A DNA stretch of 64,000 nucleotides from Escherichia coli (GTDB taxonomy: Bacteria; Pseudomonadota; Gammaproteobacteria; Enterobacterales; Enterobacteriaceae), in assembly GCF_001677475.2 (NCBI RefSeq), contig NZ_CP015229.1; one strand, written 5' to 3'. The notes beneath the pieces are model-generated. The model saw nothing but the letters and a program-made list of their open reading frames with translations, was not told the origin of the DNA and searched no databases. Made by a program: the position numbers and the translations under genes. The stretch's first letter is position 1, and every line of letters begins with the position of its first letter. This document shows positions 18,920-21,945 of the stretch, piece by piece.

Positions 18920-18965
18920 ATGAGGTAGGCCGGGCGGAAAACTGCCCGGCCTGAACATACCTAAA

Positions 18966-19786
18966 TGGTTATCCCCGCTAACGCGGGGAACTCACTGAAA
19001 ACACCGGCGAGATCGTATTTTTTGCCGGTTTATCCCCGCTCGCGCGGGGAACTCTACCGGAAGGCAGGCACATTAGATCAGGTGATCGGTTTATCCCCGC
19101 TCGCGCGGGGAACTCCAGTGAGCGGAAGAAGAATGACTAACAGAGAGCGGTTTATCCCCGCTCGCGCGGGGAACTCCCCAGCCACAACAGCCACGCGTCG
19201 CGCTGTTCCGGTTTATCCCCGCTCGCGCGGGGAACTCGGAAACCGCCCCGGCGGTGGTTGGCTGTTTGCCGGTTTATCCCCGCTCGCGCGGGGAACTCTT
19301 TGCGCCGGAAATAGGAATCGTATTCGGTCTCGGTTTATCCCCGCTCGCGCGGGGAACTCTTATGCATCTCATCAAGCTTGTCGCCAAACGACGGTTTATC
19401 CCCGCTCGCGCGGGGAACTCTTAAATCGCGCTGGAAAAAAATGGTTTTTGCGCGGTTTATCCCCGCTCGCGCGGGGAACTCACACCCCGTTGCAATAAAT
19501 GGTCTGGGGGCTGCGGTTTATCCCCGCTCGCGCGGGGAACTCCAAACGCTTCTTCGTAGGCAGCACTGTAGGCCCGGTTTATCCCCGCTCGCGCGGGGAA
19601 CTCGGTGAAAAGATGAGTGCATACTGGTTTGTTTTCGGTTTATCCCCGCTCGCGCGGGGAACTCTCTTTTCCCGCTAATCACGACCAGATCCTGTCCGGT
19701 TTATCCCCGCTCGCGCGGGGAACTCGTAAAACCTCCTCGCGCCCACAATCGCAGCGGCGGTTTATCCCCGCTCGCGCGGGGAACTC
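18966..19786 (-). CRISPR. CRISPR array, 14 repeats (29 nt) and 13 spacers (32 nt each); orphan array between ygcE and queE
   Basis: Thirteen identical repeats CGGTTTATCCCCGCTCGCGCGGGGAACTC (plus-strand reading) at 19026, 19087, 19148, 19209, 19270, 19331, 19392, 19453, 19514, 19575, 19636, 19697 and 19758, plus one degenerate terminal repeat TGGTTATCCCCGCTAACGCGGGGAACTC at 18966-18993. AT-rich leader lies at the high-coordinate end, so the array is read on the minus strand. Confidence 0.97.
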
Positions 19787-19990
19787 TCTAAACATAACCT
19801 ATTATTAATTAATGATTTTTTAAGCCAGTCACAATCTACCAACTTTACAGGATCACACAAACAACACATCTATTATGTTAAAGAGCACTTAATCCATTGA
19901 TTGAAAAGGTAAATATTTAAAATAACTCTATACAAACTAAAATCTACCAAACTCCGACGTAATAATTTTCACCCCAGAGAAAAATTAACG
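19787..19990 (-). promoter_or_regulatory. CRISPR leader (AT-rich) containing the presumed array promoter
   Basis: About 200 bp of AT-rich sequence abutting the first perfect repeat, opposite the degenerate repeat; position and composition typical of a type I-E leader. Confidence 0.55.
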
Positions 19991-20125: not shown

Positions 20126-20797
20126 TCAGGCAATATTTAAATATTTATGTGTTTGCATCGACAAACGCCAGTTACGCGCAATGCAAGTTTCAATGCACAA
20201 ACGTGTGGCATCATCCTTTTGGCTAATCGGCTGCAGTGCAATGACTCGCGGTTTATCATCGGTCAGCGTCGCAAGCAATTCATCCAGTGCTTCGATATCA
20301 CGTACGCGTCCAACTGGGTGTTTGATTTCGTTAGCTCGCTCCAGGGCTTGCGACAATACTTCATAACCACCACGCATATTTAGCTTTGGCGACACGGTGA
20401 CCCAGGTATTCGGCGTACAACGCACTTCATGAGTACCGCTGGTTTCTATCTGGCAACTGAAACCGTTCTTTTCGAGCAGGTCAGTTAGTGGCATCAAGTC
20501 ATGAATACAAGGTTCACCACCCGTAATCACCACGTGACGCGCGGTGTATCCCTGACGACCGATGACTGCGAGTAAGTCTTCACTGCTTGCTGCTCCCCAC
20601 TTATCACTCTCTTTCGTTTTACCTAGAATGCTGAAAAGGGAAACTTCCCGATCCTCAAGCTTTTCCCATGTGTGTTTGGTGTCGCACCAGGCACAGCCGA
20701 CCGGGCATCCCTGTAAACGAATAAAAATAGCGGGGACGCCGGTAAAGTAACCCTCACCTTGCAGGGTCTGGAACATCTCGTTAATCGGGTACTGCAT
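20126..20797 (-). CDS. queE: 7-carboxy-7-deazaguanine synthase (radical SAM)
   Basis: 223-aa ORF MQYPINEMFQTLQGEGYFTGVPAIFIRLQGCPVGCAWCDTK (CxxxCxxC-type radical-SAM cluster motif). Confidence 0.93.
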   Translation of the reverse strand: MQYPINEMFQTLQGEGYFTGVPAIFIRLQGCPVGCAWCDTKHTWEKLEDREVSLFSILGKTKESDKWGAASSEDLLAVIGRQGYTARHVVITGGEPCIHDLMPLTDLLEKNGFSCQIETSGTHEVRCTPNTWVTVSPKLNMRGGYEVLSQALERANEIKHPVGRVRDIEALDELLATLTDDKPRVIALQPISQKDDATRLCIETCIARNWRLSMQTHKYLNIA

Positions 20798-20969
20798 AGC
20801 ATTCTCTGTGAAGTGGATAATTGTTAATTATTGCAGATCCTGCCACAACAATCATGTCTTATTAACATTCTGTTACAGGCAGGTTTAAAGAAAAATGAGA
20901 AACAGATCGTTAATAATAAAAGGGAGTAACGTATTATGTCAGAAATAAATAAAGTAAAGGGATTTAATC

Positions 20970-21077
20970 ATGTCAAAAACATTCACCAAAATTATACTTA
21001 TTTTTTCTGTGTTCGTTTTTAATTATAACGAATCTCAAATTACCGATGCCGCCGTCAATTTATTTATCCAGCTTTAA
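20970..21077 (+). CDS. hypothetical small protein (35 aa) with hydrophobic N-terminal segment; speculative
   Basis: ATG 20970 preceded by AAGGGA 8 nt upstream; encodes [35 protein letters not shown]; ends 13 nt before ygcG. An overlapping alternative 28-aa frame starts at 20936 ([28 protein letters not shown]). No homology evidence. Confidence 0.25.
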
Positions 21078-21090
21078 TGGGAAATTTATA

Positions 21091-21945
21091 ATGCGCTATT
21101 TCATACTAATATTCACATTCGTGTGTTCCTTTGTTGCAGCCCAACCAACTATTGTCCCACAATTACAGCAACAAGTTACGGATCTTACGAGTAGCTTAAA
21201 CTCACAAGAAAAGAAAGAACTGACGCGGAAGTTAGAATCTATTTTCAATAATACCCAAGTGCAAATTGCTGTATTAATTGTTCCCACAACCAAAGACGAG
21301 ACAATTGAACAATATGCTACACGGGTTTTTGACAATTGGCGTTTAGGAGATGCCAAACGTAATGATGGGATACTGGTCATTGTTGCCTGGTCGGATCGTA
21401 CTGTCCGCATCCAGGTAGGTTATGGGCTGGAAGAAAAGGTAACCGATGCTCTGGCTGGAGATATCATCCGTAGCAACATGATACCCGCATTTAAACAACA
21501 AAAATTAGCTCAGGGATTAGAGCTAGCTATAAACGCTTTGAATAACCAACTCACTTCACAACACCAATATCCGGCTAATCCTTCAGAAAGTGAATCAGCG
21601 TCTTCCAGTGATCATTATTACTTTGCTATTTTTTGGGTATTTGCAGTGATGTTCTTCCCTTTCTGGTTTTTTCATCAAGGCAGTAGTTTTTGTCGCGCAT
21701 GTAAAAGTGGAGTCTGTATTTCAGCAATCTATCTTTTAGATTTATTCCTGTTCTCCGATAAAACTTTTTCCATTGCTGTATTTTCCTTCTTTTTTACTTT
21801 CACCATATTTATGGTCTTTACCTGTTTATGTGTACTTCAGAAAAAAGCATCTGGTAGAATTTATCATTCAGACAACAGCGGTTCCGGTGGCGGCTCAGAT
21901 AGCGGCGGATTTAGCGGCGGGGGCGGCGCATCTGGCCGCTGGTAA
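21091..21945 (+). CDS. ygcG: TPM-domain protein with signal peptide, C-terminal hydrophobic region and Gly/Ser-rich tail
   Basis: Frame from ATG 21091 ([20 protein letters not shown]..., signal-peptide-like); C-terminus ...[24 protein letters not shown]-track start 21046 lacks an RBS and would bury the signal peptide. Confidence 0.75.

Follow-up and report, generated by a model that had tools for sequence, protein, structure and literature searches.

The window analysed here is a 64,000-nt stretch of the Escherichia coli contig NZ_CP015229.1. Between the divergently transcribed queE and the TPM-domain gene ygcG it carries a spacer of 293 nt (29.7% GC), in which two small overlapping open reading frames are found. 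The features of the interval are the following.

20126..20797, minus strand: queE, the divergent neighbour, whose upstream regulatory region overlaps the yqcG locus.
20883..21060, plus strand: stretch homologous (~60–74% identity, by alignment) to the DNA upstream of lemA and to the first ~30 codons of that gene.
20920..20926, plus strand: Shine-Dalgarno-like AAGGGAG, 9 nt upstream of ATG 20936.
20936..21022, plus strand: 28-aa ORF (ATG 20936-20938, stop 21020-21022), opening at the K-12 yqcG start codon.
20957..20962, plus strand: Shine-Dalgarno AAGGGA with a 7-nt spacer to ATG 20970, very probably the ancestral lemA ribosome-binding site.
20970..21077, plus strand: 35-aa ORF (ATG 20970-20972, stop 21075-21077), very probably a 5' remnant of lemA in the ancestral lemA frame.
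20975..20979, plus strand: homopolymer run A5 (AAAAA, against AAAA in K-12), the sole length difference in the alignment.
21078..21090, plus strand: 13-nt spacer TGGGAAATTTATA, containing the GGGA ribosome-binding site of ygcG.
21091..21945, plus strand: ygcG, a TPM-domain gene (Pfam PF04536, E = 2.5e-37).

Further on from ygcG lie eno and pyrG, and upstream there is a CRISPR array. The latter (~18965-19870) is type I-E-like, with a 61-nt period and the repeat CGGTTTATCCCCGCTCGCGCGGGGAAC; it yields long repetitive pseudo-ORFs, and Tandem Repeats Finder rows cover 19147-19605. A LacI-family regulator gene takes its place in AR_0077 and AR_0081.

The earlier note on this DNA, made from the letters alone, had picked out the small ORF immediately upstream of ygcG, and its reading is accurate: the 35-aa frame runs from ATG 20970 to a stop codon 13 nt before the ygcG ATG at 21091. 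The AAGGGA motif that it placed 8 nt upstream of the start is there, with the spacing corrected to 7 nt, and the overlapping 28-aa frame that it saw behind a GGGAG is preceded by AAGGGAG at 20920-20926, 9 nt away. In the alleles of DSM101139 and CUVET, where PGAP annotates nothing, this second motif has the weaker form AAGGAAG. The hydrophobic N-terminal segment ascribed to the 35-aa peptide is real but short. Its core spans ~10–11 residues and reaches a Kyte-Doolittle maximum (19-residue window) of 1.22, compared with 1.43 for K-12 YqcG and 1.91 for the LemA N-terminus. A single-pass membrane protein has a hydrophobic helix of ~18–20 residues, and the scan finds none in the 35-aa peptide; the core is signal-peptide-like and too short for a canonical transmembrane helix.

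The caution that AT-rich DNA generates such ORFs was justified. Of 2,000 dinucleotide shuffles of the 293-nt spacer, 20% contain an ATG-initiated ORF of ≥35 codons; the length of the ORF by itself therefore carries no information. The fraction falls to 2.1% when an SD-like motif is required as well, and to 0.3% when the stop must also lie ≤20 nt from ygcG. The view that both ORFs arose by chance in AT-rich intergenic DNA and never belonged to a gene could draw on the first of these figures and on the lack of a Pfam or NCBIfam match for the 28-aa and the 35-aa peptide, a lack shared by K-12 YqcG itself, for which NCBIfam holds no HMM. Set against this are the rarity of the combined features, direct homology to the annotated yqcG and homology to the start region of lemA. 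The last two already refute a chance origin, which we consider practically untenable. The combination of ORF, SD and stop position is non-random and is explained by homology to yqcG and ancestral lemA.

The interval 20936-21077 is almost certainly the yqcG locus in a split allele, judging from its alignment with K-12. There yqcG (b4682, annotated as "cell envelope stress response protein YqcG"; in BW25113, L002 1737-1877) is 141 nt long, encodes 46 aa and maps to the 142 nt at 20936-21077. As in K-12, the frames lie on the ygcG strand between queE and ygcG. Whether the A-run has four or five letters decides between a single 46-aa frame and the pair of 28-aa and 35-aa frames: because of the one extra A at 20975-20979 the K-12 frame is broken in the window, the frame from 20936 stops at 21022, and the uninterrupted 46-codon frame to the TAA at 21075 is missing. 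The 28-aa ORF matches YqcG residues 1–14 (11/14 identities, BLASTP E = 3e-6) and then runs out of frame into an early stop, while the 35-aa ORF matches residues 14–46 (27/33 identities, E = 2e-17). Read against K-12, the two ORFs are thus two pieces of one frame, not independent candidates.

Annotation of this allele is uneven. In AR_0077, whose allele is 99.8% identical to that of the window, and likewise in AR_0081, PGAP calls a "hypothetical protein, frameshifted"; in two other A5 strains it annotates nothing at the yqcG locus. GenBank already has the exact 35-aa peptide, on at least 1,000 contigs and under the names "small protein involved in the cell envelope stress response" and "membrane stress resistance protein". 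The exact 28-aa peptide is absent from a collection of 15 billion proteins, and we infer that its ORF is an incidental frame. Of the proposal of an unannotated small membrane protein, the presence of a small-protein gene at this spot stands; "unannotated" does not, since the gene is yqcG, named in K-12-type genomes. The feature is real and was correctly read, but the locus is already known and annotated elsewhere and is not a new gene. Tagged K-12 YqcG was reportedly detected by Hemm et al. in 2008, and its levels are said to go up after SDS/EDTA envelope stress (Hemm et al. in 2010). The gene was first located only in 2008, and it has sparse transposon insertions in TraDIS (Goodall et al. 2018, PMC5821084).

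We compared the region 20700-21200 by megablast with 5,426 complete E. coli genomes, 5,421 of which matched, and counted alleles with short queries across the A-run that are unable to cross-match under megablast. The K-12 type with an intact 46-aa yqcG (A4) is found in 2,722/5,426 genomes (50%) and the window type (A5) in 1,162/5,426 (21%), ST131 strains among them; in a further 1,452/5,426 (27%) its place is taken by a full-length gene annotated as "LemA family protein". The 46-aa K-12 YqcG, which K-12-based resources present as a validated small protein of the stress response, therefore cannot be made in about half of E. coli genomes (~21% split, ~27% lemA). YqcG-type proteins of 46, 39, 36 (Shigella sonnei) and 35 aa coexist, and in some strains the yqcG locus contains IS insertions or is replaced as a whole. 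More broadly, the queE-eno interval is a polymorphic hot spot (window 20883 onward; L003 3271-6305; L009 500-3873). Its states include lemA with two to three tandem TPM paralogs and yqcG with ygcG; an IS3 element lies between yqcG and ygcG in L008, IS4 adjoins ygcG in L001 and L011, and in L007 the whole unit is exchanged for a nanE/ptsG-like island.

The lemA haplotype bears on the origin of yqcG. Haplotypes with lemA and with yqcG are nearly identical up to ~20882 and from 20883 on are diverged but homologous. In a BLASTN search of 28 Gb the lemA upstream region with the first 12 codons matched the yqcG region in 3,900 genomes (E = 4e-10 to 1e-5). Anchored at the start codon, the 35-aa ORF of the window aligns with lemA ungapped at 62–67% nucleotide identity over ~70–80 nt, and the score of this ungapped lemA prefix was reached by 0/500 shuffles. 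At the protein level 12/30 residues are identical to LemA, co-linear from Met1, which on its own is not significant. ATG 20970 and its SD (AAAGGGATTTAAnCATG) line up exactly with the lemA start in five distinct lemA alleles, the SD region reading AAAGGGATTTAAACATG in lemA alleles and AAAGGGATTTAATCATG in the window. All A5 alleles align gap-free to the five lemA alleles, a 1-nt gap being needed by A4 alleles alone, and in A4 (K-12) alleles the lemA SD is mutated to AAATGGA. The upstream ATG at 20936 is invariant in all haplotypes, yet in most lemA strains it opens just ATG-TTT-TAA.

These alignments make it very probable that the locus derives from lemA, with A5 as the ancestral state. Since A5 aligns gap-free to lemA, the window would keep the ancestral frame and the 46-aa frame of K-12 would be derived: a 1-nt deletion in the A-run very probably fused the upstream ATG to the lemA stump and so produced the 46-aa YqcG. 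E. coli LemA starts MLRIFIVIIFIFNLSGC; this is a signal peptide of the lipoprotein type, and its lipobox is LSGC. The n- and h-regions of the stump are homologous to those of LemA, and its lipobox Cys17 is replaced by Phe, because of which lipoprotein processing is not expected. The stump is thus best pictured as a former lipoprotein signal peptide (n-region and ~10-residue h-region, no lipobox Cys) followed by ~18 residues. The small-membrane-protein part of the earlier proposal is weak, since the core has ~10 residues and comes from the signal peptide of a lipoprotein, now lacking the lipobox cysteine. The LemA domain occupies residues 32–193 of the 200-aa protein and starts beyond the homologous stump; neither the 35-aa nor the 46-aa peptide has a match in Pfam to PF04011 (LemA, a domain of ~150 residues).

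The C-terminal resemblance DDVAAVS / TDAAVN prompted the idea of an in-frame internal lemA deletion, with the 5' part joined to the 3' part and the original stop retained. The best 3' alignment lay elsewhere, and the 3'-half alignment was matched or beaten by 44/500 shuffles, so the idea was dropped as unproven. Comparison of the 3' half of the remnant with lemA, and of the TPM genes with one another, did not locate the 3' junction of the deletion; the haplotypes are mosaic. Our literature search found no paper linking yqcG or ygcG to lemA.

The downstream side of the junction points in the same direction. Two or three TPM-domain genes come after lemA in the haplotype that has it, and the lemA stop codon is separated from the first TPM start by the same 13-nt spacing as in the window (L003 3873/3887; L012 1000/1014). 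There lemA stands first in the operon, and in the window too a TPM-domain gene, ygcG, lies downstream across a 13-nt junction. The window YgcG is 96% identical to that of K-12 and 79% identical overall to the final TPM gene of the complete operon (L009 TPM3), rising to ~95% from residue ~80 onward; its N-terminal ~80 residues have no close match to any paralog. From these sequences ygcG appears to be the surviving partner of a former lemA-TPM operon.

Several further observations concern ygcG itself. In L009 TPM3 the N-terminus matches TPM2 and the C-terminus matches YgcG, as in gene conversion between tandem TPM paralogs. In a comparison that asked whether ygcG is a TPM1/TPM3 chimera, the third TPM gene of HR5-1 was not ygcG-like. 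The window gene has 855 nt versus 873 nt in K-12 and AR_0077, with six residues (SGGGGS) of a Gly/Ser-rich C-terminal repeat missing. A scan for YgcG orthologs in species-representative genomes returned 2 loci, one of them a 413-bp contig (L010, NZ_RAWK01000597.1) in the Corallococcus aberystwythensis assembly, with a fragment 96% identical to E. coli YgcG at very low coverage (cov 0.67); contaminating E. coli DNA is almost certainly its source.

Does the peptide do anything? Synonymous-substitution bias across strains, which had been suggested as a check, is absent: among 7–8 DNA alleles the yqcG locus has 15 nonsynonymous and 2 synonymous segregating sites, a test of just 17 sites and 8 alleles. 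The corresponding figures are 26 and 19 for ygcG (Fisher test against yqcG, P = 0.034) and 5 and 82 for queE (P = 4e-12). Pairwise pN/pS is 0.5–2 for the stump, 0.3–0.5 for ygcG, whose constraint is itself fairly relaxed, and 0.01–0.03 for queE; segregating sites make up 12.6% of the yqcG locus. As to conservation of the reading frame, the other suggested check, the 35-aa frame is open in 7/7 yqcG-type alleles examined base by base (window included), which have diverged only ~5–8%. With these small numbers the peptide shows no detectable purifying selection, which is consistent with neutral evolution, as is the heterogeneity in length. Because of this lack of constraint the peptide is probably a by-product; on balance we think that it has no function of its own, and a functionless by-product of gene decay is the most likely description of it.

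Some data speak for a function. The 35-aa ORF could be a short YqcG isoform, membrane-associated and active in envelope stress, with A5 and A4 both working versions: its ancestral SD and ATG are intact and its initiation region is unstructured, the frame is open in 1,162 genomes, and 27 of 33 residues are shared with a protein named for the cell envelope stress response in K-12. In addition, a CRISPRi screen flagged yqcG under DNA-damaging agents, and TraDIS insertions are sparse. We nevertheless hold this to be unlikely. The excess of nonsynonymous sites, with pN/pS of ~1 or higher, does not fit a conserved isoform, and A5 strains by definition do without the N-terminal 13 residues of YqcG. 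There are variants of 36 and 39 aa and loci disrupted by IS elements, ~27% of strains carry lemA instead, the core of ~10–11 residues (KD(19) 1.22) is too short for a transmembrane helix, the lipobox Cys is lost, and deletion of yqcG is viable in K-12 (PMC4974570). The CRISPRi flag and the few TraDIS insertions could also stem from polarity, from effects in cis or from AT-rich DNA covered by H-NS. That K-12 YqcG is expressed speaks for a possible importance of the product. Detecting a small protein is, for all that, not evidence of function here, because the yqcG sequence evolves without detectable constraint.

A related possibility accepts the descent from lemA and adds a gain. K-12 YqcG would have been born from debris, A5 would be the pre-fusion intermediate in which the bare stump is still expressed, one or both peptides would have acquired an envelope-stress or PhoQ/QueE function, and the polymorphism would be selected. 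Its evolutionary part, origin and polarity, is well supported, but the functional part is not, and as a whole we rate it as quite improbable.

Translation of the 35-aa ORF probably continues, with the ORF as first cistron of a predicted yqcG-ygcG transcript: its SD and ATG are intact, its initiation region is unstructured, and its K-12 version is a detected protein. Ribosomes would start at the ancestral lemA start at 20970, make a 35-aa signal-peptide-like fragment and terminate on the ygcG ribosome-binding site. It was also suggested that the small ORF might be a leader peptide for ygcG. As an attenuation-type leader it does not hold up: we found no terminator-like site between the small ORF and ygcG, no Rfam family matched the locus, and there is no stable RNA structure, both initiation regions being less stable than shuffles (z = +1.3 for the ygcG junction and +1.1).

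More generally, the ORF might be a regulatory uORF or leader that controls ygcG by attenuation or by termination-reinitiation coupling. The geometry is suggestive, in that the stop abuts the weak GGGA SD of ygcG 13 nt before its ATG, is conserved in position in all yqcG-type alleles, recurs as lemA-TPM spacing in intact operons and comes that close in just 0.3% of shuffles. This geometry is, however, fully explained as inherited operon architecture, the juxtaposition of the 35-aa ORF and ygcG being that of an ordinary operon junction. Runs of regulatory codons are absent, as are terminators, Rfam families and stable folds, and many operons show simple coupling as a passive trait that does not amount to a dedicated leader. 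A regulatory role of this kind is accordingly improbable in our judgement, while the 13-nt junction and the weak GGGA SD leave room for passive termination-reinitiation coupling.

The other side of the spacer has to be considered as well. According to Yadavalli et al. (2016, PMC4974570), queE transcription goes up strongly when yqcG is deleted in an mgrB mutant, and PhoP-P binds the 300-bp region upstream of queE. The spacer between queE and yqcG is also reported to contain sigma-70 promoters pointing both ways and to bind H-NS (Shimada et al. 2014, PMC3946193), and an RpoS SELEX peak falls in it as well (Shimada et al. 2017, PMC5493296). In the window a sigma-70-like site CTGACA-18-TATTAT (10/12) runs on the minus strand from 20942 to 20913; it faces queE and overlaps the start codon of yqcG. 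The sequence GTATTATG around 20936 is invariant in all haplotypes, and what is conserved there may be a promoter element and not a start codon. Upstream of queE there are also two PhoP-box-like sites, at 20871-20887 (plus strand) and 20965-20981 (minus strand), each with 2 mismatches; the second overlaps ATG 20970 and the A-run, and a manual count against the direct-repeat consensus gives 2 mismatches in A5 versus 3 in A4.

Together with the low GC content of the locus (27.5%), these observations allow the view that the DNA is mainly cis-regulatory for the divergent, PhoP- and H-NS-controlled queE promoter and that both ORFs are incidental. The motif matches are no more numerous than chance would give, with 3 sigma-70-like sites against 2.0 expected and 21 PhoP-box-like sites in the window against 14.5 ± 4.2 expected, and the density of segregating sites in the locus argues against tight cis constraint. 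Such a role is moreover compatible with a lemA stump and does not exclude it. We regard a mainly cis-regulatory locus as a real but minority possibility. Regarding queE itself, the window allele differs from those of K-12 and DSM101139 at 59–60 synonymous and 2 nonsynonymous positions (pS ~0.39, pN/pS 0.01), and the 138-nt spacer adjoining it differs by just 1–4 nt. Synonymous-rich divergence beside a near-identical spacer implies that E. coli has two deeply diverged classes of queE allele and that a recombination breakpoint lies close to the 5' end of the gene.

Taken as a whole, the locus is in our opinion probably the A5 state of yqcG, a lemA 5' stump that would head the yqcG-ygcG transcription unit. 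Any role that it retains would more likely be positional, either by delivering ribosomes to the weak ygcG start or by acting in cis on the queE regulatory region. The split allele as such offers practical points only and no new biology. The "frameshifted" label given to A5 against the K-12 reference illustrates reference bias in pseudogene calling. Descent from lemA and the reversed polarity of this "frameshift" would make a modest new evolutionary footnote, and the descent suggests a hypothesis for the envelope-stress response, namely that the promoter was inherited from a lemA-TPM envelope operon.

Three known systems can be set beside the locus. With K-12 YqcG it shares the position between queE and ygcG, the start codon at 20936, the stop codon and co-linear DNA. 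K-12 has one 46-aa frame, while PGAP labels the window allele a pseudogene; the 46-aa product is impossible in the window, which could make a 35-aa C-terminal version or a 28-aa peptide with an unrelated tail. With the LemA family (PF04011) it has in common the chromosomal position, start codon, SD, first ~30 codons and the 13-nt spacing to the TPM gene, but it lacks the whole LemA domain and the lipobox and would be a remnant, not a family member. Like attenuator leaders (e.g. trpL) and coupled upstream cistrons, it is a short ORF with its own SD that ends just before the next gene; unlike the attenuators, it is associated with no terminator/antiterminator hairpins, regulatory codon runs or significant RNA structure.
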